Part shown: one piece after another, positions 3,530 through 57,851 of the stretch
How the letters are laid out: every line of letters begins with the position of its first letter
How positions within the stretch are numbered: the stretch's first letter is position 1
NCBI GenBank assembly: GCA_001303585.1
Contig: LJTT01000018.1
Coordinates: 12,810-76,809 of the forward strand
Origin: Betaproteobacteria bacterium SG8_41
GTDB taxonomy: Bacteria; Pseudomonadota; Gammaproteobacteria; Burkholderiales; SG8-41
Direction of reading: 5' to 3'
Length of the DNA: 64,000 bases
Position numbers and translations under genes: made by a program
Notes under the pieces: generated by a model
Seen by the model: the letters and a program-made list of their open reading frames with translations, nothing else
Databases searched by the model: none
Told to the model about the DNA's origin: nothing

Positions 3530-4324
3530 ATGGCCACAATCGCTGAGAACTTGCAAGCAGTTCGCTCACGAATCGGGCGTGCTGCGCAGGTTGCGGGCCG
3601 GAATGCTGAGGAGATCCTGCTGCTCGCGGTGAGCAAGAACTTTCCCGCCGCGCGCATCATTGAGGCATATGTCGCAGGTCAGCGCGCGTTTGGCGAGAGC
3701 TTTGCGCAAGAGGCTGTGGAAAAAATCACGGAACTCGCCTCGAAGCCGCTCGAGTGGCAGATCGCGCAGGTCTGTTGCAAAAACGATCGCGCTGGGGGCA
3801 AGGCGCCCGCTCCCTCCCCCGGGATGGCGTCTCCGCAGGGGTCCGGGTTACCTGCCCTGGAGTGGCATTTCATCGGCCCGATCCAGAGCAACAAGACTCG
3901 CGCGATCGCCGAACATTTTCAATGGGTGCACAGCATCGAGCGCGAGAAGATTGCGGTGCGTCTCAACAACGCCCGGCCCGCGGGCCTGCCGCCGCTCGAA
4001 GTGTGTATCCAGGTCAACGTCAGCGGCGAGCGCAGCAAGAGCGGCGTTGCGCCGGGCGGAGAAGTGCGGCTCGCGGACGCCATCGCGCAGCTGCCGCGGC
4101 TGAGACTGCGCGGCTTGATGGCGATACCCGAACCGTCGCCCGACGCGGGCGTGCAGCGGCGCCGGTTCGCCTTGCTGCGGGAACTGCGGGACGGGCTCGT
4201 TGCGCGTGGCCACGTCCTGGACACGCTCTCGATGGGCATGTCCGATGACTTCGAAGCCGCAATCATGGAGGGCGCGACAATCGTGCGCGTCGGCACGGCG
4301 ATCTTCGGCCCCCGAAATCGGTGA
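3530..4324 (+). CDS. yggS: YggS-family PLP-binding homeostasis protein carrying a 36-codon in-frame insertion
   Basis: Full-length YggS similarity (LEWHFIGPIQSNKT, GLMAIP, LSMGMSDD). Residues QIAQVCC...GLPALEW are extra compared with E. coli YggS. Confidence 0.9.
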   Translation: MATIAENLQAVRSRIGRAAQVAGRNAEEILLLAVSKNFPAARIIEAYVAGQRAFGESFAQEAVEKITELASKPLEWQIAQVCCKNDRAGGKAPAPSPGMASPQGSGLPALEWHFIGPIQSNKTRAIAEHFQWVHSIEREKIAVRLNNARPAGLPPLEVCIQVNVSGERSKSGVAPGGEVRLADAIAQLPRLRLRGLMAIPEPSPDAGVQRRRFALLRELRDGLVARGHVLDTLSMGMSDDFEAAIMEGATIVRVGTAIFGPRNR

Positions 4325-4411
4325 CCGGTGGCCGGTAATCAACAACTCGAACCGCTGTTAACATAGCCGTTATGCTCGAACGGATCACGGGTCACGGGTC
4401 GCGGGTCACGC
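4321..4411. repeat. Paired heptamer arrays in the yggS>proC spacer: gtgaccg gtggccg gtaatca (4321-4341) and atcacgg gtcacgg gtcgcgg gtcacgc (4384-4411)
   Basis: Tandem 7-bp units read directly. The right array plus one 7-nt unit ends exactly at the proC ATG at 4419. Confidence 0.85.
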
Positions 4412-4418
4412 AGTTATC

Positions 4419-5231
4419 ATGAACATCACGTTCATCGGGGGCGGCAACATGGCGGGCGCCATGATAGGCGGCCTGATCAAGCAGGGCTGGACGCCCGCTT
4501 CCATCACCGTGATCGAGATTGCGGCGGCCGCGCGCGCGCAGCTCGAGTCGCGCCTGAAGGTGAAGACGGCGCCGGCTGTCGACGCCACCGCCCTGGCGGC
4601 CGACTGCATCGTTCTCGCCGTCAAGCCGCAACAGATGCGGGAAGTGGCCCAGGCCCTTTCAGCTTTTTTGCGCGCGCAACTCGTCATCACGATTGCGGCC
4701 GGGATTCGCCTGGTCGATCTTTCGCGCTGGCTCGGGGGACATCCGCGGATTGTGCGCGTCATGCCCAATACGCCGGCCCTGGCGCTGGCCGGGATTTCCG
4801 CGCTCTATGCCGCGCCGGGCGTTGACGCCGAGGACCGGACCGCCGCCGAGCAGATCCTTGGAGCCGTCGGCGCGACGGTGTGGCTGGACCGCGAACAGGA
4901 CCTCGACGCGGTGACGGCCGTGTCAGGCAGCGGCCCGGCTTATGTGTTCTACTTCATCGAGGCGCTGGAGCGGGCGGCGGGCGAGCTCGGCCTGGGACAG
5001 GACGCGGCTCGCAAACTCGCCCTGGAAACGTTCGTCGGCGCGGTCAAGCTCGCGTGCGAGTCCGGCGAATCCCCGGCCACATTGCGTGCCCGCGTCACTT
5101 CCAAGGGAGGCACGACCGAGCGGGCGCTTCTCTCCCTGGAGGCAGACGGCGTTAAGGATGCCATCGCGCGCGCGGTGCGGGCTGCTGCGGAGCGCTCGCG
5201 CGAGCTCGGCGACGAGCTAGGCAAGGATTAG
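4419..5231 (+). CDS. proC: Pyrroline-5-carboxylate reductase
   Basis: 270 aa with N-terminal FIGGGNMAGAMIGGL and C-terminal TSKGGTTE motifs. Confidence 0.95.
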   Translation: MNITFIGGGNMAGAMIGGLIKQGWTPASITVIEIAAAARAQLESRLKVKTAPAVDATALAADCIVLAVKPQQMREVAQALSAFLRAQLVITIAAGIRLVDLSRWLGGHPRIVRVMPNTPALALAGISALYAAPGVDAEDRTAAEQILGAVGATVWLDREQDLDAVTAVSGSGPAYVFYFIEALERAAGELGLGQDAARKLALETFVGAVKLACESGESPATLRARVTSKGGTTERALLSLEADGVKDAIARAVRAAAERSRELGDELGKD

Positions 5232-5235
5232 ACAA

Positions 5236-5306
5236 CGTGAGCCGTGATCCGCAAGAGGCTCGCTGTGGCATGCGTCGTCTGATCGGCTCACGGTTCACGC
5301 ATCACT
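5236..5306. repeat. Paired heptamer arrays in the proC>yggT spacer: cgtgagc cgtgatc (5236-5249) and gctcacg gttcacg catcact (5286-5306)
   Basis: Read directly; GTGA-core units on the left and TCAC-core units on the right. Confidence 0.75.
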
Positions 5307-5325
5307 TTTTTGGATGAAATAACCG

Positions 5326-5901
5326 GTGCTATCGGGCGCGCTGATATTCCTGGCCAACGTCGTGTTCGGCCTGTTTACAGTGGCGCTGCTGCTGCGCTTC
5401 TACCTGCAATGGGCGCGCGCGCCTTACCGCAATCCGCTCTCCGAATTTCTGCACGCCCTCACCGATTTCATGGTGCGGCCGACAAGACGCGTCATACCGG
5501 GTTTGTGGGGCATGGATCTCGCGACATTGATTCTCGCGTGGCTTGCCCAGTGCATCAATCTGTTCCTCGAGTTCCAGCTGCGGGGCTATCAGGCGGGCCC
5601 GCAGGCGGGCCTCGCCTTCGTCGGGCTCATCGCACTGGCCGCGCTGACGCTCCTGAAAATCAGCCTCTATATCGTCATGGTGGCGGTCATCGTGCAAGCC
5701 GTCCTCACGTGGATTGGCCCGTACAGCCCGTTGATGCCCCTGCTCAACACCCTGACACGCCCGTTCCTGCGCGTTTTCCAGCGGCGAATCCCGCCTATCG
5801 GCAACGTCGATCTCTCCCCGATCTTTGTTCTGGTGGTCTGTCAGCTTCTGCTGATGGTGCCGGTAGCCTACCTCGAGGTGTCGGTGGCGAGATTGTTCTA
5901 A
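5326..5901 (+). CDS. yggT: YggT family membrane protein
   Basis: 191-aa four-TM protein in the conserved yggS-proC-yggT-yggU context; GTG start. Confidence 0.85.
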   Translation: MLSGALIFLANVVFGLFTVALLLRFYLQWARAPYRNPLSEFLHALTDFMVRPTRRVIPGLWGMDLATLILAWLAQCINLFLEFQLRGYQAGPQAGLAFVGLIALAALTLLKISLYIVMVAVIVQAVLTWIGPYSPLMPLLNTLTRPFLRVFQRRIPPIGNVDLSPIFVLVVCQLLLMVPVAYLEVSVARLF

Positions 5902-5903
5902 GG

Positions 5904-5978
5904 CGTAAGCAGTGAGCGGATTCTTAAGAAAAGAATGTATTTCCCATGACCTCTGACCGCTTACGGCTTACCGGTTAC
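5904..5978. repeat. Paired heptamer arrays in the yggT>yggU spacer: cgtaagc agtgagc (5904-5917) and ctctgac cgcttac ggcttac cggttac (5951-5978)
   Basis: Read directly. The core here is GTAAG/GTGAG on the left and TTAC/TGAC on the right, so still complementary. Confidence 0.75.
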
Positions 5979-5989
5979 GATTTCGCTCC

Positions 5990-6325
5990 GTGACATCGAG
6001 CTGGCACCGCTACGATTCGGCGCGGCACTGCCTGATCCTGACCGTGCACGTTCAGCCCAACGCGAGAAATAGCCAGTTCGTGGGACTGCACGGCGATGCG
6101 TTGAAGGTGAAAATTGCGGCGCCAGCGGTGGACAACAAGGCAAACGCCGCTCTGATCGAATTCTTGAGCGTAACGCTCGGCGTTCAAAAATCCGTGATGG
6201 CGATTCGCCGCGGCGCGACCGGCCGCCGCAAAGTCGTGGAAATCACCGGCGGCCCCGAACTGGCTGCGCTGCTGGAAAAGCTGCTGGACGAGGAAAATCA
6301 TCAACCGCGGAACGACAAGGGATGA
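5990..6325 (+). CDS. yggU: DUF167 (YggU) family protein
   Basis: 111 aa; the VQPNARN...KVKIAAPAVDNKANAALIEFL motif is typical of DUF167. Confidence 0.85.
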   Translation: MTSSWHRYDSARHCLILTVHVQPNARNSQFVGLHGDALKVKIAAPAVDNKANAALIEFLSVTLGVQKSVMAIRRGATGRRKVVEITGGPELAALLEKLLDEENHQPRNDKG

Positions 6326-6424
6326 CACGGACGCAAACCCGAATCAGAAGGGCGCTGCGGTGGGTCAATGGTTTCTGTGTGGTTCCGCGGCCGCGTTGTC
6401 TGCGAGGTGGCTTCGCATCACGGT

Positions 6425-7885
<1,461 letters not shown>

Positions 7886-7898
7886 AACGGGAGCGCGT

Positions 7899-8519: not shown

Positions 8520-8616
8520 GTTCTGATAAATGTTTTTGGCAAACCGTCAAAGGCAAAAGCGGCGAACGGCGATTCCCGCCCGATCATACGGCCTCCCGCG
8601 GGGAGGCGGGTGCCGT

Positions 8617-9093: not shown

Positions 9094-9108
9094 GGCGGCG
9101 GCTCGCCG

Positions 9109-9443
9109 TCAGGACGGGACAGCGCGGCGCCCGCGGCGCACCTTGCGCACCGGCGGCCCCCAGAGCTCTTCCAGGTCGTAGTACTTCCGGATGGCCGGCT
9201 GCATGATGTGGACGACCACGGGACCGAGATCGACCAGTATCCACTCCCCTTCGCGCTCGCCCTCCACCCCGTAGACGCGTGCCCCCGCGGCCTTGAGCTT
9301 CTCCTGGACATTGCGTGAAAGCGCCTTGCCCTGATGCGATCGAACAGCGCGGTCAGTCGCTTCACATCGAGCACCACGATGTCGCGTCCCTTGATGTCCT
9401 CAAGCGCGGCAACCGTGGTCTTGACCAGCTTATCGAGTCTCAT
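9109..9443 (-). pseudogene. rsfS: Ribosome silencing factor RsfS, disrupted by a short internal deletion plus frameshift
   Basis: The N-terminal part (LVKTTVAALEDIKGRDIVVLDVKRLTALFDRI) is in one frame. The C-terminal part (QGKALSRNVQEKLKAAGARVYGVEGEREGEWILVDLGPVVVHIMQPAIRKYYDLEELWG) is in another. The junction is near 9331-9340, and about 9-10 conserved residues (the IVASG..SNR block) are missing. Confidence 0.7.
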
Positions 9444-9449
9444 CCACAC

Positions 9450-10120: not shown

Positions 10121-10201
10121 GGTGATGGGTGATGGGCGATGGGTGATACGTCACGTGCACTACGCCGGCCCGGCACGATTCACGATTCACGATTCACGCC
10201 T
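10121..10201. repeat. Paired heptamer arrays in the aceF>nadD spacer: (ggtgatg)x4 at 10121-10148 and (cacgatt)x3 plus cacgcct at 10174-10201
   Basis: Read directly. The arrays are in inverted orientation around a 25-nt centre that contains cacgtg. Confidence 0.9.
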
Positions 10202-10209
10202 CGCCGGGA

Positions 10210-11529
10210 TCAGAGGACGAGACGCCTGATATCGGACAGCACACCGCTGAGAAATGCGATAAAGCGCGCGCCCTGCGCCCCGTCGATCACGCGGTGGTCA
10301 TACGAGATCGACAGCGGCAGCATCAGCCGTGGCGCGAAGTCCTTTCCCGACCACACCGGTTTCATCGTCGACCTGCCGACGCCAAGTATTGCGACTTCGG
10401 GCGCGTTGATGATGGGAGTGAAATGGCTGCCGCCGAGCCCCCCTAGGCTGGATATCGAGAAACACCCGCCCTGGAGATCGTTCGGGGATATCTTGCCTGA
10501 GCGCATGCGCTCGCTTACCTCGCCGAGCTCGCGCGCGAGCTCGAGCAGGCCCTTCTTGTCAACATCGCGGATTACCGGAACGACGAGCCCGTTGGGCGTG
10601 TCCACCGCAACGCCGACGTGGAAGTACTGCTTGAGCACCAGGCTCTCGCCATCCGCCGAGAGCGACGCGTTGAAGTTCGGATATTGCTTGAGCGCCACTA
10701 CCACCGCCTTGAGCAGGAAGCACAGGATGGTGAAGCGAATGCCTTGCTTCTTCGCTTCTTCGACCTGGATCTTGCGGAATTCCTCGAGCTCGGTGATGTC
10801 GGCCTCGTCGTGCTGTGTAACGTGCGGAATCGTGACCCAGTTGCGGTGCAGATTCGCGCCAGAGAGCTTCTTGATGCGGGGAAGCGGCTGCGCAGTAACC
10901 GGGCCGAACTTGGAGAAGTCCACTTGCGGCAGTGGCGGCAGCGCGAGGCCGAAGCCGCCCCCGCCGGCGCCCGGTCGCGCCAGCGCGGCCTTCACGTAGT
11001 TCTGAACATCCTCCTTCAGCACCCGTTCCTTCGCCCCGCTGCCCTTGACGCGCGCGAGGTCGACTCCCAGTTCGCGCGCAAATCGCCGCACGGAAGGGCT
11101 CGCGTGAGAGCGCGCAAAACCGCTCTCGTCGATGCGTGCTTCCACGCCAGCCGGCGCCTGCGCGCCGCGCGTGGGCGGTTGGGGCTCGGGACTCGCCGGC
11201 GCCGGCCTCTCCGCTGCAGGCGGCGCTGGCTTCTCAGCCGCAGGCGGCGCTGGCTTCTCGGCCGCAGGCGGGGCCGCGCGTGCCTCGTCGGCCGTCTCGA
11301 GCATCACGACGAGCGAGCCTTCCGAAACCTTGTCCCCGACCTTGACCTTGAGCTCCTTAACCACGCCGGCGGCTGGCGCGGGCACCTCCATGGTCGCCTT
11401 GTCGGATTCCAGTGTGATCAGTGAATCCTCGGCCTTGACGCTATCGCCCGCCTTGACGAGGACTTCGATCACCGGCACGTCCTTGAACTCGCCGATGTCG
11501 GGAACCTTGACTTCGATGATGTTGCTCAT
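10210..11529 (-). CDS. aceF: Dihydrolipoamide acetyltransferase (E2) of the pyruvate dehydrogenase complex, with a single lipoyl domain
   Basis: 439 aa with a lipoyl domain ([10 protein letters not shown]), a PA-rich linker, a PSBD and a catalytic domain (DHRVIDG); it lies downstream of aceE. Confidence 0.9.
11216..11273. repeat. 24-bp tandem repeat (about 2.4 copies) inside aceF, encoding the AAEKPAPP linker
   Basis: gcaggcggcgctggcttctc(a/g)gcc is repeated at 11216-11239 and 11240-11263, with a partial third copy. Confidence 0.85.
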
Positions 11530-11536
11530 TGCAAAT

Positions 11537-11733
11537 CCGTGACCGGTGACCGGTGATTCGAGGTCACGTCAGGAAAGAACTGAACTACAGCCGCAGATGG
11601 ACGCCGATCAACGCCGATTGAAGCAAGAGATACGGTGTTCCGCGGTTGTTTGTCTGCGTTCATCTGCGTTTATCTGCGGCTAATCTCGTTTTTGGTTTTC
11701 GACACGGGCTCTGCTCACGGGTCAGCGGTAACA
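11537..11733. repeat. Repeat-dense aceE>aceF spacer: heptamers ccgtgac cggtgac cggtgat (11537-11557), decamer arrays (11585-11619, 11648-11687), and heptamers gctcacg ggtcagc ggtaaca (11713-11733)
   Basis: Read directly. The 209-bp intercistronic spacer consists almost entirely of short tandem units. Confidence 0.8.
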
Positions 11734-11738
11734 ACCCA

Positions 11739-14426
<2,688 letters not shown>

Positions 14427-15342: not shown

Positions 15343-15360
15343 GCTGAGCCGGTGCGTACT

Positions 15361-15381
15361 GAATGTTGAATGTTGAACGGC
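15361..15381. repeat. Heptamer array gaatgtt gaatgtt gaacggc upstream of the crotonase start
   Basis: Read directly. Confidence 0.7.
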
Positions 15382-15529
15382 AAAGACGGACCAGCGCGGT
15401 GGTCAAGGGGTCGACCACCGTTCCTTTTATGATTCACCTCGAACAATCGGCGTCCATCGGCGGCTAAATGCCAACAATCACAATTTAATGGTTCTTGTTT
15501 CTCCATATCTGCATTTAGCTGCGGCTATA

Positions 15530-15567
15530 TTCTTCTTCCTCTTCCTCTTCCTCTTCCTCTTCTTCTT
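15530..15567. repeat. 38-nt pure pyrimidine tract with a (ctcttc)4 hexamer core; polypurine (GAGGAA)n on the coding strand right after the hadh stop
   Basis: Read directly as ttcttcttcctcttcctcttcctcttcctcttcttctt; it abuts the stop codon at 15566-15568. Confidence 0.9.
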
Positions 15568-20173: not shown

Positions 20174-20307
20174 CCGTTCAAGTTTCCGGTTCACGCAAAA
20201 TTGGATGGCAGCGGTTTACGAAGTTCCCCACTTTGAACTTTGAACTCGGAACATTGAACCGGGAACATGGAACACGGAGCATGGAACCCGGGACTTGGAA
20301 CACGAGC
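20174..20307. repeat. Heptamer arrays: ccgttca agtttcc ggttcac (20174-20194) and 11 consecutive units with consensus CNYGGAA (20231-20307)
   Basis: Read directly as ctttgaa ctttgaa ctcggaa cattgaa ccgggaa catggaa cacggag catggaa cccggga cttggaa cacgagc. Confidence 0.9.
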
Positions 20308-21868: not shown

Positions 21869-22007
21869 AACGCCAAGGCGCCATGAGAGACAAGACCAAC
21901 GAATGGAGTTGGCTGCCAGGAACAAACCGTTTTTGTGAAAATCAAGCCTGACGCGTTATAGTTTCATTCTTCGGTTCGATCCTTCGGAATTTCGGTGCTG
22001 ATTTTCA

Positions 22008-22033
22008 TGGCGTCTTGGCGTCTTGGCGGTTCG
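22008..22033. repeat. Octamer-based repeat tggcgtcttggcgtcttggcggttcg, with a second copy at 37021
   Basis: 24/26 identical to 37021-37046; a partial third copy, ctcttggcggttca, lies at 22058-22071. Confidence 0.85.
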
Positions 22034-25612: not shown

Positions 25613-25645
25613 CTGGCGCTCGTGCCAGCGGCGGAAGCCGATCGA

Positions 25646-25753
25646 GTGACTAAGTGACCAAGCGGCTGGATCGCCCCGTTATAACAAATAAACCCTAGCG
25701 AACGAATTCACGCATAGTCGCTTAGTCGCTTAGTCACCTAGTTACCTGGTCAC
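25646..25753. repeat. Inverted octamer arrays: gtgactaa gtgaccaa (25646-25661) versus atagtcgc ttagtcgc ttagtcac ctagttac ctggtcac (25714-25753)
   Basis: Read directly. The arms are about 16/18 complementary with a loop of about 56 nt. Confidence 0.8.
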
Positions 25754-25767
25754 CTGCATTCTCCCCA

Positions 25768-29401: not shown

Positions 29402-29477
29402 TGGCGCGCCCGGCGGGATTCGAACCCACGACCTTTGGCTTCGGAGGCCAACACTCTATCCACTGAGCTACGGGCGC
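29402..29477 (-). tRNA. tRNA-Arg (anticodon CCG)
   Basis: GCGCCCGTAGCTCAGTGGATAGAGTGTTGGCCTCCGAAGCCAAAGGTCGTGGGTTCGAATCCCGCCGGGCGCGCCA folds as a cloverleaf; the CCA end is encoded. Confidence 0.9.
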
Positions 29478-29593: not shown

Positions 29594-30415
29594 ATGTCCG
29601 AGATCCACGTCGAAGAACACTCCTCCCCGATCAAGACGCCCCGGCAGCTGATCGTCGTCATGGTGCTCGCGTTTGCCCTACCCGTGCTACTGATCTCGCT
29701 GCTCGCGTCGCTCATATCGGGCGGCGGCGACTACAGCAAGGACAGCCCCAGAATGTCGGACGAGGCGATCGCCAAACGCCTTCAGCCGGTGGGCACCGTC
29801 GTGGTATCCGCGCCCGGCGCATCCGGCGCCGAGAAAGGCGGCAAGGAAGTCTACGAGACCGTGTGCGCCGCCTGTCACGCGACCGGCGTGCTCAATGCGC
29901 CGAAGTTCGGCGACAAGGCCGCTTGGGCAAAGCTGATAGCCGAAGGTCAGGAAAAGCTCACGGCAGACGCCATGAAAGGCGTGCGCCAGATGCCTCCCCG
30001 CGGAGGCAATCCTGATCTGAGCGACACCGAGTTTGCGCGCGCTGTCGCCTTCATGGCCAACGCCGCCGGGGCCGACTGGACGGTGCCGGAATCCAAGGCC
30101 GCATCGACCACGCCGCCACCCGCTGCAGCTGCAGCGCCCGCGCCAGCTCCAGCCGCAACGACGCAGACCGACTCGGCCAACGGCAAAGCGGTCTATGACA
30201 AGGCTTGTATGGTGTGCCACGCCGCCGGGGTTGCTGGCGCGCCCAAGGCTGGCGACAAGGCCGCGTGGGCCCCGCGACTCAAGGCCGGAATGGACACGCT
30301 CTATGCTTCCGCGATCAAAGGCAAGGGTGCCATGCCGCCCAAGGGAGGCAACACCGCATTGCCCGACGGCGATGTGAAAGCAGCCGTGGATTACATGGTG
30401 GACCTCGTCAAATAA
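29594..30415 (+). CDS. Membrane-anchored dihaem c-type cytochrome (cytochrome c5-like domains)
   Basis: Two CxxCH motifs (CAACH, CMVCH), each followed by a GxMPP(R/K)GG segment; one N-terminal TM helix and a PA-rich linker. Confidence 0.85.
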   Translation: MSEIHVEEHSSPIKTPRQLIVVMVLAFALPVLLISLLASLISGGGDYSKDSPRMSDEAIAKRLQPVGTVVVSAPGASGAEKGGKEVYETVCAACHATGVLNAPKFGDKAAWAKLIAEGQEKLTADAMKGVRQMPPRGGNPDLSDTEFARAVAFMANAAGADWTVPESKAASTTPPPAAAAAPAPAPAATTQTDSANGKAVYDKACMVCHAAGVAGAPKAGDKAAWAPRLKAGMDTLYASAIKGKGAMPPKGGNTALPDGDVKAAVDYMVDLVK

Positions 30416-30416
30416 T

Positions 30417-30529
30417 CCGTGAACCGTAAGTCGTGATTGGTGAACGCAAAGGCGCAGCCGAAGCTGCGCCTTTTTTGCTTGCAGCCAAGCTGCCCAGCGC
30501 GGGTCACCGGTCACCGGTCACCGATCACG
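30417..30529. repeat. Paired heptamer arrays in the cytochrome>apaH spacer: ccgtgaa ccgtaag tcgtgat tggtgaa (30417-30444) and ggtcacc x3 plus gatcacg (30502-30529)
   Basis: Read directly. The arrays flank the intrinsic terminator. Confidence 0.9.
30451..30476 (+). terminator. Rho-independent terminator after the cytochrome c gene
   Basis: ggcgcagc-cgaa-gctgcgcc stem-loop followed by TTTTTT. Confidence 0.85.
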
Positions 30530-33412: not shown

Positions 33413-33484
33413 GGGTTTGATCGCTATCCAGCGGGTAGAGGGCGATGCGGCGGACCGCTCCGCTCACGGCTCAAGGTTTGCGGG

Positions 33485-34881
33485 TCACAATTTGCCGCTC
33501 GCCCGGGGCGTCCAGGCGAGATCGAGCAGGCGCGCTGCCTTGGTGTCGTCGAGGCGGCGCACCGGGGTGGCATGAGGCGCCGTCTTCAGCAGTTGGGGAT
33601 CGCCCCGCGCTTCCACGAGGATCTCGCTCATGGCCGCAGCAGCGGAAAGTAGACGGTGGGGGCATGGAAACCTTTGTCGAGAAGGCGCTTGGCCACGTCC
33701 AGCGCGGTGACGCCGGTTTCCTCCTTCAACCGGCGCAAAGTAACAATGAATTCGTGGCTTGCCCGTCTCTGCGGAAACGCAATCTCGAATCCCGCTTTTG
33801 CCAGCTCCACCATCAGGTAGTTGGCGTTGAGGGTCGAAAACTCCGCGACCCGACGCATTCCCTCCGCGCCAAGCATACGGGCGTAAACATAGGCGCGCAG
33901 CAGCACGCCCGCGTTGCCGAGCTGCGCGCCGAGCCGCCCGATCGACAGCGGCCGGTCGGTCTCCCCCAGCAGGCGATAGCCGCCTTTGCGCTGCGCCACC
34001 AGCGGAAGCGGCAGGAACGGCGCCAGCCGGCTATTTACGCCAACCGGCCCCGCACCAGGGCCACCTCCGCCATGCGGCGTGGAGAACGTCTTGTGCAGGT
34101 TGATGTGAATCGCGTCGAAGCCCATGTCGGCAGGTTTGGCCTCACCGAGAATCGCATTCAGGTTGGCGCCATCGTAATAGAGCAGCCCGCCCGCCTCATG
34201 CACGGTCCGCTCCATCTCGAGAATGTGCTGCTCGAACACCCCCAGCGTTGAGGGATTGGTGAGCATGAGTCCCGCCGTCCGCGGCCCTACTGCGGCCTTC
34301 AGCGCCGCCAGGTCGACGTTGCCCTGCGCGTCGGTTGCGATCTCGCGCACCATGTAACCGCACATCACCGCCGAGGCCGGATTCGTTCCGTGCGCGGCGT
34401 CCGGAACGAGGATCTCGCGCCGATCCGCGTCGCCGCGTGCGTCGTGGTAGGCGCGGATCATCGCCACGCCAGTGAACTCACCTTGCGCCCCGGCCAGCGG
34501 CGCAAGGCTTACTTCCGCCATGCCCGTGACGCTCTTCAGGATTTCCTGCAGATCGTAGAGGCACGCAAGAAAGCCCTGCCCCGTATCGTCCGGCGCTGCG
34601 GGGTGGCGCCCGAGAAACGCAGGCAGCATCGCCAGCGCGTTGCACGCCCGCGGGTTGTACTTCATCGTGCACGAGCCGAGCGGATAGAAATGCGTGTCGA
34701 TGGAGAAATTGTTCTGCGACAGGCGCGTGTAGTGGCGCACGACATCGAGCTCGGAGCATTCCGGCAGGAGCGGGGGCTTCGTTCTGAGATACCGCCCCGG
34801 GATCTCGCCTGCGCCAGGCGTCGCGGCGGGCGCTTGCGCCGCGCTCTTGCGCCCCGACCTCGATCGTTCAAAGATCAGCAT
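33485..34881 (-). pseudogene. gcvPB: Glycine dehydrogenase (decarboxylating) subunit 2, disrupted by an internal deletion plus frameshift
   Basis: The main frame ends at ...[12 protein letters not shown] (33628). The conserved C-terminus [42 protein letters not shown] continues in another frame to 33485. About 22-26 residues (the EPTETES block) are absent. Confidence 0.8.
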
Positions 34882-36424: not shown

Positions 36425-36436
36425 TTTTCAGAGGCC

Positions 36437-36518
36437 CGTGAGCAGTGATCGGTAGTGGGTGATCAAAGATGACGGACCAAGGGTAAAGTCTTTTAATCGT
36501 CGCCGATCACTCATCGCG
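36437..36518. repeat. Paired heptamer arrays in the gcvH>gcvPA spacer: cgtgagc agtgatc ggtagtg ggtgatc (36437-36464, plus one degenerate unit) and cgtcgcc gatcact catcgcg (36498-36518)
   Basis: Read directly. Confidence 0.75.
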
Positions 36519-36919: not shown

Positions 36920-37020
36920 GATCGCTCCAAAATATAGTCATACCGCAAAGACGCGAAGGTGCAAGCTTTCCATAAAATGAATCTGCTCTTTTTGAGAACA
37001 GGCTCTTCTTTGCGAGTTTT

Positions 37021-37046
37021 TGGCGTCTTGGCGTCTTCGCGGTTCA
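37021..37046. repeat. Octamer-based repeat tggcgtcttggcgtcttcgcggttca (copy of 22008-22033)
   Basis: 24/26 identical to the liuC-liuE spacer copy. Its last 3 nt are the gcvT stop codon. Confidence 0.85.
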
Positions 37047-38149: not shown

Positions 38150-38184
38150 AAAAAAAGGGCGAGGCCGGCATTCCGGCATCACCC
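38150..38184 (-). terminator. Intrinsic terminator forming the riboswitch expression platform
   Basis: GGGUGAUGCCGG-AAUG-CCGGCCUCGCCC stem with one mismatch, followed by U7. It overlaps the 3' strand of aptamer 2. Confidence 0.7.
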
Positions 38185-38392
38185 CTCTGTCCTCGGGAAT
38201 CCCCTGATGGATTCCGACCTGAGAGATTGCGGCGGCGATCGCCGCGTGCCCCTTCGGTGGAGGAGTCGCGCCCCTCGCTCTCCAGAGTTGCCGCGCTGCA
38301 GCGGTATTCAGGAGCCGTTGGCTCCACGCCTGAGCGTTTACGGGTCGTTGCGCCTTCGGTGGCGCGATGCCCAGCACCGCGCGCTCTCCCGT
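38185..38392 (-). promoter_or_regulatory. Tandem glycine riboswitch (two aptamers) in the gcvT leader
   Basis: The minus strand reads GGGAGAGCG...CACCGAAGGCGCAA...CUCAGGCG, then CUCUGGAGAGCG...CCACCGAAGGGGCA...CUCUCAGGUC...GGACAGAGGGG, matching the glycine aptamer consensus twice. Confidence 0.88.
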
Positions 38393-40253: not shown

Positions 40254-40273
40254 CCAACTCACGAAACACTAAA

Positions 40274-40378
40274 CGGTGAATGGTGAACAGAATGACACCG
40301 CGTCGCGGACGTGCCGTCTTCCGGCCAAATGTTACGGTTCAGCGGCCGCTGGTCACCATTCACCATTCATCATTCACC
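40274..40378. repeat. Paired heptamer arrays in the accC>prmA spacer: cggtgaa tggtgaa cagaatg (40274-40294) and ggtcacc attcacc attcatc attcacc (40351-40378)
   Basis: Read directly. Confidence 0.85.
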
Positions 40379-40389
40379 GGCGCTGGCGC

Positions 40390-41745: not shown

Positions 41746-41756
41746 TTCTGGAGCGG

Positions 41757-41857
41757 CGTGGGTCGTGAACGGTGGGTGGCAAGTGAACTAGAACACAAGA
41801 AAGGGTCCGAAAACGGTCAGGGGCTCGACTCACCAATCACAACTCGCCACTCACGCC
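41757..41857. repeat. Paired heptamer arrays in the accB>accC spacer: cgtgggt cgtgaac ggtgggt ggcaagt gaactag (41757-41791) and tcaccaa tcacaac tcgccac tcacgcc (41830-41857)
   Basis: Read directly. Confidence 0.8.
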
Positions 41858-45738: not shown

Positions 45739-45742
45739 GGGG

Positions 45743-47719: not shown

Positions 47720-47793
47720 CCCTTCGGGCGCGAGCAGAGCAAACCACAAACATCAGGCCACTGAGTCATTCCACTCGCCGTCCGCCGCTTTCG

Positions 47794-47828
47794 GGTTACG
47801 GGTCACCGGTCACCGGTCACCGGTGACC
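47794..47828. repeat. Heptamer array ggttacg ggtcacc x3 ggtgacc in a convergent spacer
   Basis: Read directly. It ends 4 nt before the hemY stop codon. Confidence 0.9.
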
Positions 47829-47832
47829 GATT

Positions 47833-49041: not shown

Positions 49042-49166
49042 GAGTCTGCCTCCGGATTTTGAAGAACGACCCCTGGCTGCCCGGTCACACGACTGAACAC
49101 CGGCCGCGATGCATCAGCGAGCCGCACACAGCGGGTAGGCGGGTAGCAGGCGCCAATGGTTTGTCC

Positions 49167-49194
49167 GATCACGGTCTGCCGGTCACTGATTACG
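49167..49194. repeat. Heptamer array gatcacg gtctgcc ggtcact gattacg overlapping the hemX stop
   Basis: Read directly. Confidence 0.65.
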
Positions 49195-52228: not shown

Positions 52229-52240
52229 CTACCTCGCTGA

Positions 52241-53352: not shown

Positions 53353-53375
53353 TTCCGGTGCGTCCGCGCGGGTCC

Positions 53376-53403
53376 GGTCACGGGCAGCGGTCGCGGGTCA
53401 CGA
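53376..53403. repeat. Heptamer array ggtcacg ggcagcg gtcgcgg gtcacga
   Basis: Read directly; lies between the algR stop and the downstream ORF. Confidence 0.65.
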
Positions 53404-53414
53404 CCCTCATCCAC

Positions 53415-54176
53415 TCAGCGGAAGAACTCCCGCATCACATGCTGCTGGCGCCGGCTCACCGGGAGTTTTTCCTCGATGCCATTTAGCACCACCACCCAGC
53501 GCGCTTCGCCGTTCTCGGCCGCGCGCTCAAAGCCGCGAATGGCACCGCGCGCAACAAGGCAGTTGCGATGCACTCGCACGAATCGTTCCCCGTACTCCTC
53601 CTCGAGCCTGCTCAGTGATTCCTCGATCAGGTGCTCGCCCCTGGCGGTGCGCACAGTCACGTACTTCAGCTCGGCCTTCAGGTACACAATGTCCCCGATC
53701 GGGATGAGCTCGATTTTGCCCCGCTCCTGCGCGCTCAGGTGCGCGCGCGGCGCGCGCTGCAGCTCGCGGAGCGCCTCCGGCCGTAGCGGGCGAGCGGTTC
53801 GTACCCGGGCCAGCGCCTCCTTTAGGCGCGCCGCGCGAATCGGCTTGAGCAGGTAGTCGACCGCGTTCACCTCGAATGCCTTCAGCGCATACGCATCGTA
53901 GGCGGTGGCAAAAATCACCGCTGGAGGCCGGTCCAGCTTCAGCAGGTGCTGTGCAAGTTCGATGCCGTCCATCTCAGGCATGCGCACATCCAGCAGAACG
54001 ACGTCGCAGGGCACTCGCTCCAGCAGTTCGAGCGCGGCGCGCCCGCTTGCCGCTTCGCCGGCGATCTCGAGCGGGAACTCTTGCGCGCAATCAGCGAGCA
54101 CATCGTGCATGCGGGAGCGTGCCGGCGCCTCGTCGTCCACAATCAGCACGCATAGCGGTTTGGGAGCGTCACTCAT
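53415..54176 (-). CDS. algR: LytTR-family response regulator (AlgR-like)
   Basis: REC domain (VLIVDDE) plus a LytTR DNA-binding domain. The argH-algZ-algR-hemC synteny matches Pseudomonas. Confidence 0.85.
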   Translation of the reverse strand: MSDAPKPLCVLIVDDEAPARSRMHDVLADCAQEFPLEIAGEAASGRAALELLERVPCDVVLLDVRMPEMDGIELAQHLLKLDRPPAVIFATAYDAYALKAFEVNAVDYLLKPIRAARLKEALARVRTARPLRPEALRELQRAPRAHLSAQERGKIELIPIGDIVYLKAELKYVTVRTARGEHLIEESLSRLEEEYGERFVRVHRNCLVARGAIRGFERAAENGEARWVVVLNGIEEKLPVSRRQQHVMREFFR

Positions 54177-54193
54177 GGCTCACGACTCACTCA

Positions 54194-55213
54194 TCACGAA
54201 TCACCACCTTTGACGTAGGGCATGGCAATGTGCACCTGATAGGTATCATCGCCGACGCGTGTATCGAGTGTCGCCTCGGCGTCGAAGTGCAGCTGCAGGC
54301 GCTCGCGGATATTGGCAAGCGCCATTTTGTTGCCGGCGTGATGCCCGCCATCGTGGCGATACGGGTTGCGCAGAACCGCGTGCACCTGCCCGCGGGCGCC
54401 ATAGATGTCAATGCTGACCACACCGGGCTCGACCCGCGGCTCGATGCCGTGGTAGACGGCGTTCTCCAGCAGCGGCTGGAGCACCAGCGGGGGCACCAGC
54501 GCATCGGCCGGCATTTTATCGATATGCCACTCGATCTGGAGCCGCTCGCCCAGGCGCAACTGCTCGAGCTCGAGGTATTGCCGGCACAGGTCCACCTCGC
54601 GAGCCAGCGGCGACAGGCTGCGATTGTCGGCCATCAGCACGCGGAAGAGGTCGGCCATGTCCTCGAGCGCAGCCTCGGCCCGCTTCGGGTTCTGGCGAAT
54701 GAGCGAAAGCACCGCGTTGATGCTGTTGAACAGAAAGTGCGGCCGGATGCGCGCCTGCAGCGCCTGAAGCCGCGCCTCGGTGAAGGCCGGCGACAGGGCA
54801 CGCCCCCGCAGGTCGAAATACACCAGAAGCGCGCCCGTCGCCAATGCGACCAGCGCCCAGTAACGCATCAGCGGCGCAGGCTTGTCCGCGAGCAGGGGCT
54901 GGCCAAAAGTGTAGAGCAGCGTGGTCAGCACGAGCTCGATGGCAAGTACCGCGAGCACGCCAAGGTAATAGGGCAGACGCTTCAACAAGTCATTCAGCGC
55001 GACAAGCGCAACCACGCTGAGGATCAGCAGTGGCTGCACGACCGCAGAAAGCTCCAGCAGGACGTTCCAGAGCTGGCGCAGGTCGCTCGTCTGCACGATC
55101 GCCGCAGCCAGCGCCATCACGTTGACGATGACGACGATACGCAGGGCGATACCGAGATTGCGGAAGTTCGGCAAGGCGCCTGAGTAGGCGTTTTGATTTA
55201 TACTTCTCGCCAT
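54194..55213 (-). CDS. algZ: LytS/AlgZ(FimS)-type sensor histidine kinase
   Basis: N-terminal 4 TM helices, then a His_kinase (LytS-type) domain (RPHFLFNSIN) and an ATPase domain. Confidence 0.8.
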   Translation of the reverse strand: MARSINQNAYSGALPNFRNLGIALRIVVIVNVMALAAAIVQTSDLRQLWNVLLELSAVVQPLLILSVVALVALNDLLKRLPYYLGVLAVLAIELVLTTLLYTFGQPLLADKPAPLMRYWALVALATGALLVYFDLRGRALSPAFTEARLQALQARIRPHFLFNSINAVLSLIRQNPKRAEAALEDMADLFRVLMADNRSLSPLAREVDLCRQYLELEQLRLGERLQIEWHIDKMPADALVPPLVLQPLLENAVYHGIEPRVEPGVVSIDIYGARGQVHAVLRNPYRHDGGHHAGNKMALANIRERLQLHFDAEATLDTRVGDDTYQVHIAMPYVKGGDS

Positions 55214-55360
55214 GCGCTATCTGAACGATGACACCTTGAGCGTTTCCCTGCCGCCATCAGTGCGCCCTGTCCGTATTTGAAAGGCCTGTTGCGCTGCCGC
55301 GCAGCGCGCGCTTGAAGCCCATCGAGACTCCCCAGAACGCTGTAGATTCTAACAGCCAGC

Positions 55361-56755
55361 ATGTCCGCAAACGACAAACCCCACAACAAGCCGTGGTCGG
55401 GCCGGTTCTCCGAGCCGGCGACCGAGCTCGTGCAGCGTTTCACAGCTTCCGTTTCCTTTGACCAGCGGCTTGCCGAGTATGACATCGAGGGCTCGCTCGC
55501 CCACGCGCGGATGCTGAGGGCAGTTGGCGTGATCGGCAAGGACGATCTTGCCGAAATCGAGAAGGGGCTCGCGCAGATCCGCACGGAGATCCAGTCCGGC
55601 GCGTTCCCCTGGTCCGAGGCGCACGAGGACGTCCACTTCAATATCGAGCGTCGGCTGATCGAGCTCGCCGGCGAGCCGGGCAAGCGGCTTCACACCGCCC
55701 GCTCGCGCAACGACCAGGTGGCTACCGACGTGCGGCTTTTTGTGCGCGCGGCGATCGACGATTCGCTCGGGCTCATCAAAGGCCTGCAGCGCGCGCTGCT
55801 CGACCTGGCCGATGCGCACACCGAGACGGTGATGCCGGGGTTCACCCACATGCAGGTGGCGCAGCCTGTTTCGTTTGCGCATCACCTCATGGCCTATTTC
55901 GAGATGTTCTCGCGGGACGCGCAGCGGCTCAGCGACTGCCGCAAGCGCGTGAACCGCCTGCCGCTCGGGGCCGCCGCGCTGGCCGGCAGCTCGTTCCCCA
56001 TCGATCGCCAGGCCGTCGCAAAAGAGCTGGGTTTCGATGGCGTCTGCGAGAACTCGATCGATGCCGTCTCCGATCGCGATTTTGCGATCGAGTTCTGCGC
56101 CAGTGCGGCGCTTATCGCTATGCACCTTTCGCGCTTTTGCGAGGAACTCATTCTGTGGACGAATCCCCGTTTTGGTTTCGTCGAGCTTGCCGATCGCTTC
56201 TGCACCGGCTCTTCCATCATGCCGCAAAAAAAGAATCCCGACGTGGCCGAGTTGATCCGCGGCAAGACGGGGCGCGTAAACGGCCACCTCGTCGCGCTGC
56301 TGACGCTCATGAAGGCACAGCCGCTCGCCTACAATCGCGACAACCAGGAGGACAAGGAGCCGCTCTTCGATGCGGTCGACACCTTGACCATGTGCCTCGC
56401 GGTCTTCTCGCAGCTGCTGTCGGGCATCGAGGTGAATCGCGAGGCGATGGCAAATGCCGCGCGTCAGGGGCACGCGACTGCCACCGATCTCGCAGAGTAC
56501 CTGGTTCGCAAGGGGATGCCGTTCCGCGAGGCACACGAGGCGGTTTCACAGGCAGTGCGCTTCGCGGAAGGCCGTGGCTGCGAGCTCGCAGAACTGAAAC
56601 TCGCCGAGCTGCAAAAATTCGCGCCGGCCGCCGGCAAGGACGTTTTTGCGGCGTTGACCCTCGAGGGCTCGCTCAAATCGCGCACCCACATCGGCGGGAC
56701 GGCGCCCGCTCGCGTCAAAGCAGCGATCGTGAAAGCGCGCAAAACGCTTGGCTAG
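55361..56755 (+). CDS. argH: Argininosuccinate lyase
   Basis: 464 aa with [20 protein letters not shown] signatures. Confidence 0.97.
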
Positions 56756-56876
56756 AATATAGCCGTTGATGAACGCCGATAGGAATCTGCCCTAGATTCG
56801 ATTTAGAAACCGTTTCGGTTCGGATCTTCGGTTGTACATCGGCGTGCATCGGCGGTTTCATTCAGGCTCTTGACCC

Positions 56877-57758
56877 ATGGATCCCTGGCGCGACATCGAG
56901 GCGGCGATCCGCGAGGCATCGGGCGAACCCTTCGCGATCGAATCCCGTGACGGTGTGGGGGGCGGCTGCATCAATGAGAGCTACGTCGTCCGCGGCCAGG
57001 GGCTTGCCTTCTTCGTCAAGCTGAACGCCTCGGACCGGCTATCGATGTTCGAGGCCGAAGCGGACGGTCTCAATGAGATCGCGCGCTCGAACACCGTGCG
57101 CGTCCCGCGCCCGCTTTGCCACGGCACCGGCGCGGGCGCCAGCTGGCTCGTGCTCGAGCATATCGAGCTGGGTTGTCCCAGCAGCCGCGGCATGGAGGAG
57201 CTTGGCCGCAGGCTCGCCGCGATGCACCGCGTCACGGCGGCGCGCGCCGGCTGGCACCGCGACAACACGATCGGCGCCACACCCCAGATCAACACACCAA
57301 GCGCAGACTGGATCGCGTTCTGGCGCGAGCACCGGCTGGGCTTTCAGCTGCGGCTCGCCCGCGAGAACGGCCACCGCGGCCGCCTGCTGGCGCAAGGTGA
57401 GCAGCTGCTCGAGCGGCTGCCGGCCTTCTTTTCCGGCCATGCGCCGCCCCCGTCATTGCTGCACGGCGACCTGTGGTCGGGTAATGCCGCTTTCATGCAG
57501 GATGGCCCGCCGGTCATCTTCGATCCTGCGGTTTATTACGGGGACCGCGAGGCCGACATTGCGATGACCGAGCTATTCGGGGGCTTTTCAACGGATTTCT
57601 ACCGCGCGTACGACGAGGCCAATGCACTGGACGCGGGCTACGCGACGCGCAGGCAGCTCTACAATCTATATCACGTGCTCAACCACCTCAATCTGTTCGG
57701 TGGCGGCTATCGCGCTCAGGCCGAGCGCATGATCGACGAGTTGCTCGCCGAGACGTAA
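56877..57758 (+). CDS. Fructosamine/ketosamine-3-kinase family protein
   Basis: 293 aa; GGGCINESY and HGDLWSGN motifs. Confidence 0.9.
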   Translation: MDPWRDIEAAIREASGEPFAIESRDGVGGGCINESYVVRGQGLAFFVKLNASDRLSMFEAEADGLNEIARSNTVRVPRPLCHGTGAGASWLVLEHIELGCPSSRGMEELGRRLAAMHRVTAARAGWHRDNTIGATPQINTPSADWIAFWREHRLGFQLRLARENGHRGRLLAQGEQLLERLPAFFSGHAPPPSLLHGDLWSGNAAFMQDGPPVIFDPAVYYGDREADIAMTELFGGFSTDFYRAYDEANALDAGYATRRQLYNLYHVLNHLNLFGGGYRAQAERMIDELLAET

Positions 57759-57781
57759 GAAGCAGCACGCAGTGCTCCCCT

Positions 57782-57851
57782 CGCCTCTCGCGTCTCGCGT
57801 CTCCTCACTCATCATTCATCATTCAAAATTCGTAACCGGCCGCCGGTCACG
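57782..57851. repeat. About 10 consecutive 7-bp units (cgcctct cgcgtct cgcgtct cctcact catcatt catcatt caaaatt cgtaacc ggccgcc ggtcacg) filling a convergent spacer
   Basis: Read directly. The last unit contains the LacI-family gene stop codon. Confidence 0.8.

Follow-up and report, generated by a model that had tools for sequence, protein, structure and literature searches.

The window analysed here is a 64,000-nucleotide (nt) stretch of contig LJTT01000018.1 (positions 12,810 to 76,809, forward strand) from the uncultured betaproteobacterium Betaproteobacteria bacterium SG8_41, and has a G+C content of 64%. Its intergenic spacers carry short tandem-repeat arrays, mostly with a 7-nt unit, which occur in many cases as two complementary arrays (hereafter arms) in one spacer: a 5′ arm beside the stop codon of the upstream gene and a 3′ arm ahead of the start codon of the downstream gene. 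Nine such pairs had been listed in the initial annotation, and the gene names given around them proved right. NCBIfam supports yggS, proC, yggU (DUF167), rng, maf, nadD, aceF, aceE, cytochrome c, apaH, gcvT/H/PA, prmA, accC and accB; yggT had no NCBIfam match, and the identical product in the same-species contig L161 has Pfam PF02325 (YggT). (Numbers beginning with L denote the contigs and loci compared with the window, and spacers are written as upstream>downstream gene.) Compared with the RNase G of species representatives, that of the window reaches no more than 86% identity; the nearest are Burkholderiales metagenome-assembled genome (MAG) Hainich-H32-bin046 and Betaproteobacteria bacterium RIFCSPLOWO2_12_FULL_62_13. 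Other assemblies of the same species share 97.7-100% nucleotide identity with the window, and one of them is a complete 3.32-Mb chromosome, CP070703.1.

Tandem Repeats Finder reported arrays of 2.6-7.9 copies, with period 7 at 4380-4410, 10121-10147, 10174-10198, 11539-11556, 15360-15377, 20230-20304, 30502-30528, 40353-40378, 47801-47829, 57780-57803 and 57805-57825. A lag-7 self-match scan, with a threshold of at least 12 of 14, found 10 arrays; nine counted as intergenic, and the remaining one (20230-20252) precedes a macro-domain gene once the start of that gene is corrected. The intergenic share is 9-10 of 10, though the window is 85-90% coding. Lag-7 identity in the 5.7 kb of intergenic DNA was 0.316, compared with 0.261 in shuffled sequence (z 9.3), and the excess persisted at lag 14 (z 6.1). 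The coding DNA of the window showed 3-nt codon periodicity only and no lag-7 signal, so that the comparison proposed with the initial annotation came out in its favour. All nine listed pairs were found at the positions given for them, and the window holds at least 13 inverted array pairs; those beyond the list, some with period 8 or 10, are at 25640-25755, 36943-37042, 21869-22031 and 33455-33487. Read in the sense of the mRNA, two to five units of the type nnGTGAn (or GTAA, ATGA) stand right after the stop codon, and two to five units of the type nnTCACn stand 5-30 nt before the next start. The unit word depends on the spacer (GTGACCG, GTGAGCC, GTAAGC, GTGAATC, GTGAATG and others) and contains no G3 run. 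We conclude that the observation is real and far above chance.

The two ends of a spacer pair with each other better than with the ends of other spacers. RNAduplex energies were calculated between the opening and the closing 40-45 nt of each spacer, and own ends were compared with ends of different spacers by a permutation test. With the 30 co-directional spacers of the window, the own-pair energy was -27.0 kcal/mol and the cross-pair energy -22.4 kcal/mol (p=5e-5). With 29 spacers from many genomes that have array-like ends on both sides, the values were -31.5 and -19.8 kcal/mol (p<=5e-5), and the own partner ranked best of the 29 in 8 spacers and among the top 3 in 16. The claim that the arms of one spacer have complementary cores, with aceF>nadD matching only weakly, is upheld by these figures. 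When whole spacers were folded, 9 of 10 were more stable than their shuffles (z -1.8 to -4.5), the exception being aceF>nadD, so the shuffle check suggested with the annotation succeeded in all spacers but this one. In the minimum-energy folds the main stem consists of the two arms, with the stop codon at the stem base and the start codon unpaired 5-25 nt beyond.

We scanned 80 loci around rng from species representatives and 80 metagenome loci around proC. Gene calling based on G+C at third codon positions was poor in lower-GC loci, with only 73% called coding; in L033 and L076 the arrays that received the label 'cds' probably lie between genes, and the statistics exclude them. Heptamer arrays were present in many, not all, Betaproteobacteria, among them Burkholderiales-type MAGs, Sulfuricella, Thiobacillus and Hydrogenophilales MAGs, and none were found in most loci of Gallionellaceae, Sideroxydans, Nitrosospira and Sulfuriferula. 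At the same junction in another genome the unit, and even the period (7, 8 or 10), differs while both arms still match. Thus, at yggS>proC the 5′ and 3′ units are CCAAGACG and TTGGCGTC in L001, AATGTGA and TTCACCA in L016, and TAAGCGG and CCGCTTA in L010; at aceF>nadD they are GATGAGT and CTCATCG in L007 and L011 (ATGA/TCAT core), and GAGAGGA and CTCCTTT in L002.

Homology across genera is demonstrable for the yggS>proC element, in which the arms co-vary around a conserved loop core, GCTGTTAACATA (window 4352-4366; also in L081, L086, L090, L102, L084 and L096). The 5′/3′ arms read TGACCGG/CGGGTCA in the window, TGGCTGG/CCAGCCA in L086, TGACTCG/CGAGTCA in L102, and TTTCTCG/CGAGTAA in L084 and L096, where the purine-rich arm is now on the 3′ side. 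The compensatory core changes that had been proposed as a check in orthologous spacers were therefore found on the yggS>proC element. Since word and period vary while the arms co-vary, the conserved property is complementarity and not the word; this speaks in favour of conserved pairing and against recognition of one word by a protein. The loop core resembles an extended -10 box, and in a sister clade the yggS stop is directly followed by CCGTATAATG, pointing to a candidate proC promoter within the hairpin loop. Orthologous junctions without arrays measure 0-25 nt or overlap (TGATG), whereas those with arrays measure 85-130 nt. Arrays and loops are thus extra DNA in formerly tight junctions.

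The arms also change between near-identical strains. Among strains 97.7-99.9% identical, all tallied intergenic indels of at least 2 nt were whole units inside arrays: +21 nt in the aceE>aceF 3′ arm (3 versus 6 units), -7 nt in the apaH 3′ arm, +7 nt in the gcvH 5′ arm and -8 nt in the 8-mer arm after gcvT. The gcvPB>dgk 3′ arm is gone from the window through a 27-nt deletion, and a further +7 nt in it sets L171 and L172 apart from the other strains. Array-free spacers showed no length change among the strains compared. Length change hits one arm at a time, whole-unit gain and loss of this sort being the hallmark of slippage during replication. The accB>accC 5′ arm of strain L170 has two T>C changes, by which U.G pairs of the predicted stem become C-G.

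Placement follows the coding context. Of 125 co-directional or convergent spacers 35 have arrays, whereas none of the 19 divergent ones does (Fisher p=0.007), and stop-proximal arrays start -12 to +15 nt from the stop codon. In 127 orientation-certain spacers, 44 stop triplets fall at stop+7k, compared with ∼21 per other register; hence the stop codon itself frequently makes up the first unit. At the spacer 5′ end there are 1.83 stop triplets per 35 nt in the sense and 0.72 in the antisense direction (p=5e-10), and ATG/GTG triplets number 1.56 per 35 nt at the 5′ end and 0.46 at the 3′ end. The 5′ arm is rich in stop triplets and purines, and the 3′ arm is poor in ATG/GTG. All three frames are closed within 30 nt in only 16 of the 127 spacers, and the families CAAGACGC, GAGAGGA and GAAGAG have no stop triplets, so that a dedicated three-frame-stop function is not general. 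Across the same 127 spacers the 3′ arm has no register with the downstream ATG, and the 7-nt register with the ATG claimed for proC and aceF does not extend to them. A good Shine-Dalgarno match was seen in 1 of 13 array-preceded genes and in 28% of the others (p=0.27); the remark that no Shine-Dalgarno sequence is visible stands in so far as the matches are weak, and the difference from other genes is not significant. The idea that the arms mimic Shine-Dalgarno and anti-Shine-Dalgarno sequences (GGUGA/UCACC) was discarded, because G is not favoured at the position preceding GTGA and many units lack such a match.

The annotated order of the arms, with the GTGA type following the stop and the TCAC type preceding the start, holds as a strong tendency but has exceptions: 20176-20304, L084, L096 and L057 show the reverse. 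A GTGA-first pair is an inverted repeat that reads the same on both strands, so the pairs are uninformative on the direction of transcription, and we dropped orientation relative to the mRNA as evidence for an RNA. What is informative on orientation is the sense of single arrays, the absence from divergent spacers and the reversed exceptions. Single post-stop arrays in convergent spacers, annotated near 47794-47828 and 57782-57851 and present at 47792..47830 and 57779..57825, follow the sense of the nearest gene. The description of the paired spacers as operon-internal is not established, given a terminator (30448-30473) in one loop and a -10-like box in the yggS>proC loop. Table 1 lists the arms and single arrays.

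Table 1. Positions, strands and units of repeat arms, single arrays and an associated hairpin in the window
Feature	Units	Position	Strand	Remarks
yggS>proC 5′ arm	TGACCGG TGGCCGG TAATC	4322..4340	+	first unit is the yggS stop codon; pairs with 4382-4410 in minimum-energy fold
yggS>proC 3′ arm	GGATCAC GGGTCAC GGGTCGC GGGTCAC	4382..4410	+	ends 8 nt ahead of proC ATG; Tandem Repeats Finder, lag-7 scan, fold
proC>yggT 5′ arm	CGTGAGC CGTGATC	5236..5251	+	12-bp stem in minimum-energy fold, z -2.4
proC>yggT 3′ arm	GGCTCAC GGTTCAC GCATCAC	5285..5305	+	followed by six-T run; fold
yggT>yggU 5′ arm	TAAGGCG TAAGCAG TGAGCGG	5899..5919	+	in register with stop codon TAA; fold
yggT>yggU 3′ arm	CCGCTTA CGGCTTA CCGGTTA	5957..5979	+	GTAAG/CTTAC core; fold
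aceF>nadD 5′ arm	(GTGAATC) x3	10174..10200	-	Tandem Repeats Finder, lag-7 scan
aceF>nadD 3′ arm	(CATCACC) x4	10121..10149	-	weak complement of 5′ arm; whole-spacer fold z +0.4
aceE>aceF 5′ arm	GTTACCG CTGACCC GTGAGC	11713..11732	-	
aceE>aceF 3′ arm	AATCACC GGTCACC GGTCACG	11537..11558	-	3 units in window, 6 in same-species contig L161
Cytochrome c>apaH 5′ arm	TAATCCG TGAACCG TAAGTCG TGATTGG TGAACG	30413..30446	+	all units in register with stop codon; z -4.5
Cytochrome c>apaH 3′ arm	(GGTCACC) x4	30501..30529	+	one unit fewer in strains L166, L168
Strong intrinsic-terminator-like hairpin and T run		30448..30473	+	in loop between cytochrome c>apaH arms
gcvH>gcvPA 5′ arm	GATGAGT GATCGG	36495..36516	-	one more GATGAGT unit in strains L168-L171
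gcvH>gcvPA 3′ arm	GATCACC CACTACC GATCACT GCTCACG	36436..36464	-	fold
accC>prmA 5′ arm	GGTGAAT GATGAAT GGTGAAT GGTGACC	40351..40379	-	Tandem Repeats Finder, fold
accC>prmA 3′ arm	GTTCACC ATTCACC GTTTAGT	40267..40288	-	fold
accB>accC 5′ arm	GGCGTGA GTGGCGA GTTGTGA TTGGTGA	41826..41857	-	Tandem Repeats Finder, fold
accB>accC 3′ arm	degenerate TCAC/CCAC units	41755..41788	-	fold
Period-8 5′ arm	AGGTGACC AGGTAACT AGGTGACT AAGCGACT AAGCGACT	25706..25755	-	Tandem Repeats Finder
Period-8 3′ arm	TTGGTCAC TTAGTCAC	25640..25661	-	period and unit common with partner 25706..25755
gcvT>gcvH 5′ arm, 8-mer family	GAAGACGC CAAGACGC C	37016..37042	-	one unit fewer in strain L172
gcvT>gcvH 3′ arm	CCTTCGCGTCTTTGCGG	36943..36959	-	13-bp stem in fold, z -3.5
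8-mer family 5′ arm	AACGCCAAGGCGCCATGA	21869..21886	+	
8-mer family 3′ arm	CATGGCGT CTTGGCGT CTTGGCGG	22005..22031	+	Tandem Repeats Finder
Reversed-orientation pair, 5′ arm	GTTCAAG TTTCCGG TTCACG	20176..20195	+	
Reversed-orientation pair, 3′ arm	∼11 units, TTGAAC/GGAAC type	20230..20304	+	upstream of macro-domain deacetylase gene; breaks GTGA-first tendency
Single post-stop array, convergent spacer	(GGTGACC) x4	47792..47830	-	begins 1 nt past stop of minus-strand gene; units 1+2 form a palindrome
Post-stop arrays, convergent spacer	TGAATGA, GAGACGC	57779..57825	-	downstream of terminator-like hairpin 57830-57852
gcvPB post-stop 5′ arm	TGACCCG ... TGAGCCG TGAGCGG	33455..33487	-	partner 3′ arm (CTCACCG TTTACCG) in all other strains, deleted in window
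Pre-start heptamer array	GTTCAAC ATTCAAC ATTCAG	15359..15378	-	no complementary partner
Purine-rich hexamer array	(GAAGAG)n	15530-15565	-	directly after upstream stop; no complementary partner
Post-stop array	TAATCAG TGACCGG CAGACCG TGATCGG	49165..49192	-	in register with stop codon

Two families of arms with other periods recur. The 8-mer family CAAGACGC/TTGGCGTC, which in the window (36943-37042, 21869-22031) has no stop triplets, was seen at other junctions in L001, L002, L004, L017, L025, L081, L083, L085 and L094. Hairpins with period-10 arms (GATGAACGCA/CGCCGAT types) are at 11585-11682, 15444-15528 and 56759-56861, with arms alike and loops unrelated, and the GATGAACGCA family is also in L081 (aceE>aceF) and L082 (proC>yggT). 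Period 6 in the window is otherwise confined to coding DNA, save for (GAAGAG)n at 15530-15565.

Several known element classes do not describe the arrays, as the initial annotation had recognised for REP/BIME elements, CRISPR and ordinary terminators. Repetitive extragenic palindromes (REPs) are 20-40-nt imperfect palindromes, nearly identical over hundreds of copies and tied to the REP-associated tyrosine transposase RAYT; REPINs are inverted doublets of ∼100 nt. In enterobacteria and pseudomonads, REPs and bacterial interspersed mosaic elements (BIMEs) are intergenic, located after stops in operons or between convergent genes, and their mRNA stem-loops stabilise upstream messages. Position and stem-loop layout are alike here, whereas the arms are tandem repeats with a word that changes from locus to locus, and one loop bears no relation to another (mean z -0.15). 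MITEs, miniature transposable elements with terminal inverted repeats, a target-site duplication and a conserved interior, were rejected for lack of interior homology, and no duplicated flanks were seen in the spacer sequences. Unrelated loops and variable arm words together rule out a REP/REPIN- or MITE-like family. CRISPR arrays have 23-50-nt repeats with unique spacers of similar length, as opposed to the directly abutting units of 7-10 nt. The scan for intrinsic terminators, short GC-rich hairpins with a 3-8-nt loop directly ahead of a U run, picked up no array stem; its matches at 30448-30473 and 57830-57852 are separate hairpins, and a six-T run follows the pair at proC>yggT only. In the scan of the window at gathering score, no Rfam family matched any array. 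CRP-like half-sites (TGTGA/TCACA), GNRA tetraloops (GUGA/GUAA), Rho utilization (rut) sites and invertible promoters are resemblances only, which the variable words do not fit.

A closer counterpart is published. In Xanthomonas, GGGAATC heptamer arrays are 89-93% intergenic and include 70-75 convergent array pairs that could fold into stem-loops (Rehm et al. 2015, PLoS One, PMC4692102). In the parts of that article drawn on here, the G-rich strand is on the coding strand up to 50 bp after the stop codon, sometimes overlapping it, and the C-rich strand is on the coding strand up to 50 bp before the start; few arrays lie between divergent genes, and array length varies among species while the paired or single status is kept. 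No function is assigned there, and G-quadruplexes are proposed. Arm compensation and stop-codon phasing, both documented here, were not found in those parts of the article (PMC4692102). The arrays of the window have in common with the Xanthomonas arrays the 7-nt tandem units, the inverted pairs, the purine/G-rich strand after the stop with its complement before the start, and the rarity between divergent genes. Unlike the Xanthomonas arrays, which use one genome-wide word with G-quadruplex potential, they have a word per spacer and also 8- and 10-nt units, and a G-quadruplex is not possible.

The short tandemly repeated repetitive sequences (STRR) of cyanobacteria consist of a few fixed words genome-wide, CCCCAGT, TTGGTCA and CAACAGT, and to our knowledge have not been described as complementary pairs flanking a spacer. 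Unlike these fixed words, the word here changes between spacers and between orthologous spacers. In Calothrix and Anabaena, STRR are intergenic tandem heptanucleotides with no assigned function (cited in PMC4692102), and the same article mentions only few paired repeats in Nostoc. The initial annotation had named STRR as the nearest precedent; the paired GGGAATC arrays of Xanthomonas (PMC4692102) are much closer.

Heptanucleotide long simple-sequence repeats (LSSR), surveyed by Mrazek, Guo & Shah (2007, via PMC4679880 and PMC4692102), have units of 5-11 nt, 7 nt being the commonest, and an intergenic excess; they are enriched in Burkholderia (Betaproteobacteria), Xanthomonas, cyanobacteria and actinobacteria, and polymerase slippage has been proposed for them (PMC4679880). 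Tandem arrays of 2.6-7.9 copies, intergenic confinement of units whose length is not divisible by 3 and copy-number variation between strains place the present arrays in this class. The survey, as summarised in PMC4679880, concerns single arrays and describes no complementary pairing and no stop/start placement. The TAACTGA arrays of marine Beggiatoaceae are intergenic heptamers of 2-6 copies with stop triplets in all frames, which adjoin start codons that have no Shine-Dalgarno sequence (MacGregor 2015, PMC4679880). In that account they have a single word, with the stop-containing strand forward just upstream of starts, the opposite of the tendency here, and they are essentially unpaired, with one indirect repeat among 169 sets. 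In Geobacter metallireducens, four to five tandem heptamers (GGACCGG; MTYCTGA) occur at tens of sites, some of them drawn by the authors as two-stranded loop-back alignments (Aklujkar 2009, PMC2700814); unlike the arrays here, these are fixed words, detected with BLAST as multicopy families, which occur both inside and between genes and were read as binding sites of global regulators. We conclude that the arrays of the window are hypervariable heptanucleotide long simple-sequence repeats, which here form inverted pairs at either end of the spacer that follows a gene.

The explanation that we tentatively favour, with doubt slightly outweighing belief, has slippage creating inverted arms whose complementarity is maintained and which, on read-through RNA, zip the spacer into a REP-type intercistronic or 3′-end stem, so that an insertion of ∼100 nt is tolerated. 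Slippage-generated arms with maintained complementarity are what the data show, and a role in RNA is the inferred part. On a read-through or polycistronic transcript, the arms would zip into a stem of 15-30 bp whose base brings the upstream stop codon together with the stretch immediately 5′ of the next start, with the middle of the spacer (terminator, promoter box or junk) looped out. By analogy with REP/BIME elements, the stem would most likely act as an intercistronic or 3′-end RNA structure that protects the upstream message, damps read-through and holds stop and start close, and this closeness may be what allows an insertion of 85-130 nt in a formerly tight junction to be tolerated. Orientation would be set by coding constraints, a stop-rich, GTG-containing arm being harmless beside a stop codon and a start-codon-free pyrimidine arm being the harmless one beside a ribosome-binding site.

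Several observations weigh against this explanation. The aceF>nadD spacer folds no better than its shuffles (z +0.4), and the loss of the gcvPB 3′ arm in the window has no obvious consequence. Partnerless single arrays occur at 15359-15378, in convergent spacers and in L004. Many relatives have no arrays, and therefore the arrays are dispensable. Because a terminator (cytochrome c>apaH) and a -10-like box (yggS>proC) lie in loops, the two arms may often be on different RNAs. Moreover, the ratio of G.U pairs in sense to those in antisense (a G.U-versus-A.C test), which was 101:59 in a first small set, was 259:283 with equal duplex energies in 93 orientation-certain spacers. Strand asymmetry was consequently dropped as evidence for RNA, and in its absence nothing shows that pairing is read in RNA rather than in DNA. 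Of the proposal in the initial annotation that selection acts on pairing, as an RNA stem or a DNA cruciform, and not on a single protein word, the pairing part is borne out by the specificity and co-variation of the arms, and the 259:283 result leaves RNA stem and DNA form level.

The lack of asymmetry is also expected if the arrays are a non-adaptive by-product at the DNA level with no RNA function, which we consider unlikely, while still the main rival. Heptamers in this lineage would slip readily and persist only where they are harmless, either directly behind a stop codon or in the stretch from a stop to the following ribosome-binding site, and complementarity would be kept up by intrastrand template switching (quasipalindrome correction) in single-stranded DNA hairpins at replication. 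Whole-unit polymorphism that affects one arm at a time, the dispensability and patchiness of the arrays among relatives, the deletion of one arm in the window and the existence of single arrays all agree with it; stop-phased first units would fit seeding by duplication of the stop-codon heptamer, and polymerase slippage has been proposed for the heptamer excess in general (Mrazek 2007, as cited in PMC4679880). Such a by-product requires, however, an efficient arm-to-arm conversion that is undemonstrated for arms 30-200 nt apart, does not alone account for array spacers clustering at 85-130 nt, and gives no account of complementarity surviving complete turnover of the unit word across genera. 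The stop phasing would also suit a translation device, in which the 5′ arm serves as a stop array for three frames (a period of 7 or 8 placing TGA/TAA in all of them) and the hairpin passes the terminating ribosome to the next start by coupling or shunt-like re-initiation, preserving translational coupling of genes without their own Shine-Dalgarno sequence. Stop triplets occur in excess and keep phase with the real stop codon, the junctions concerned are tight or overlapping in relatives (proC>yggT, yggT>yggU, aceE>aceF), a good Shine-Dalgarno match precedes just one of the 13 genes, and the folds put the stop at the stem base and the start shortly beyond. We nevertheless regard this device as improbable, given that few spacers (16/127) close three frames within 30 nt, that stop-free families (CAAGACGC, GAGAGGA, GAAGAG) exist, that orientation is reversed in some spacers, that the Shine-Dalgarno difference is not significant (p=0.27), and that in convergent spacers, with no downstream gene to couple, arrays likewise stand behind the last gene.

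Loops that contain a conserved -10-like box (GCTGTTAACATA or CCGTATAATG, yggS>proC) or a strong terminator, together with a layout that is the same on both strands and shows no strand asymmetry, could point to a DNA-level element: the arrays would extrude as a cruciform or bind a protein and so modulate the looped promoter or terminator, acting for instance as an insulator or as a switch that responds to supercoiling. This is decidedly improbable, since the unit word differs by spacer, making a sequence-specific protein unlikely, loops of 25-155 nt would make cruciform extrusion slow, and most loops have no recognisable signal. A non-autonomous mobile element of the REPIN/MITE type, moved by a RAYT/IS200-like or other transposase, would explain the uniform size of ∼85-130 nt, the appearance of elements in formerly tight junctions and the recurrence of the 8-mer (CAAGACGC) and 10-mer (GATGAACGCA) arm families across loci and genomes. 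It has very little likelihood, however, in view of mutually unrelated loops (mean z -0.15), an arm word that differs between heptamer spacers, no target-site duplications or conserved ends seen, and vertical inheritance of yggS>proC, where the loop is conserved while the arms drift. In a bolder reading, the paired arrays would be a self-renewing intercistronic "zipper" across a clade of Betaproteobacteria, convergent in Xanthomonas, in which a stop-phased, slippage-tunable stem would combine re-initiation across its base with insulation or buffering of the promoter or terminator in the loop, the number of units being a genome-wide heritable rheostat of operon polarity. We offer this as a speculation that is improbable on present evidence.

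Some other features of the window were recorded. The only two Rfam matches are a glycine riboswitch aptamer at 38177-38295 (minus strand), upstream of gcvT, and a tRNA gene at 29405-29477 (minus strand). Inside aceF (11197-11271), a 24-nt-period repeat with 3.1 copies and 90% matches presumably encodes an Ala/Pro-rich inter-domain linker. In rsfS, 28 bp are missing at 9320-9340 (minus strand) relative to L161, which is 99.5% identical across the shared 11.9 kb; the reading frame is therefore broken in the window, by either a genuine frameshift or an assembly error. At ∼33636 all 8 related strains are longer than the window by ∼68 nt, and their gcvPB has 487 aa, compared with a 417-aa open reading frame in the window, where the gene looks truncated or frameshifted; the apparent 215-nt spacer at 33413-33627 is mostly the 3′ end of gcvPB. 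In L165 (CP070703.1, 398795-419184), the genes ahead of gcvH code for pilins and TPR proteins, unlike those in the window, which implies a rearrangement or an island upstream of gcvH in that strain.

The paired heptamer architecture (Xanthomonas, PMC4692102) and the abundance of heptamers (PMC4679880) are already published. Relative to those accounts, in so far as they are drawn on here, the new elements are the word per spacer, arm compensation on a homologous element, stop phasing, whole-unit polymorphism between strains and the spread over a clade of uncultured Betaproteobacteria; with a word per spacer, explanations by a quadruplex or by a single protein word are excluded. In many bacterial genomes the long simple-sequence repeats are most commonly heptanucleotide ones, whose role has been an open question since 2007, and the only detailed study in the literature considered, that of Xanthomonas, invoked a G-quadruplex of one fixed word. 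Locus-specific words that form no quadruplex, co-varying arms and resizing by units move the candidate explanation from motif to pairing plus slippage. The complete same-species genome CP070703.1 and dozens of strain-level assemblies make this a tractable test system. If the zipper proposal were true, it would give a function to heptanucleotide repeats, unexplained since 2007. If the stems are functional, they would represent a widespread, rapidly tunable layer of operon organisation; if they are not, the arrays would be a clean example of mutation bias and coding constraints shaping intergenic DNA.

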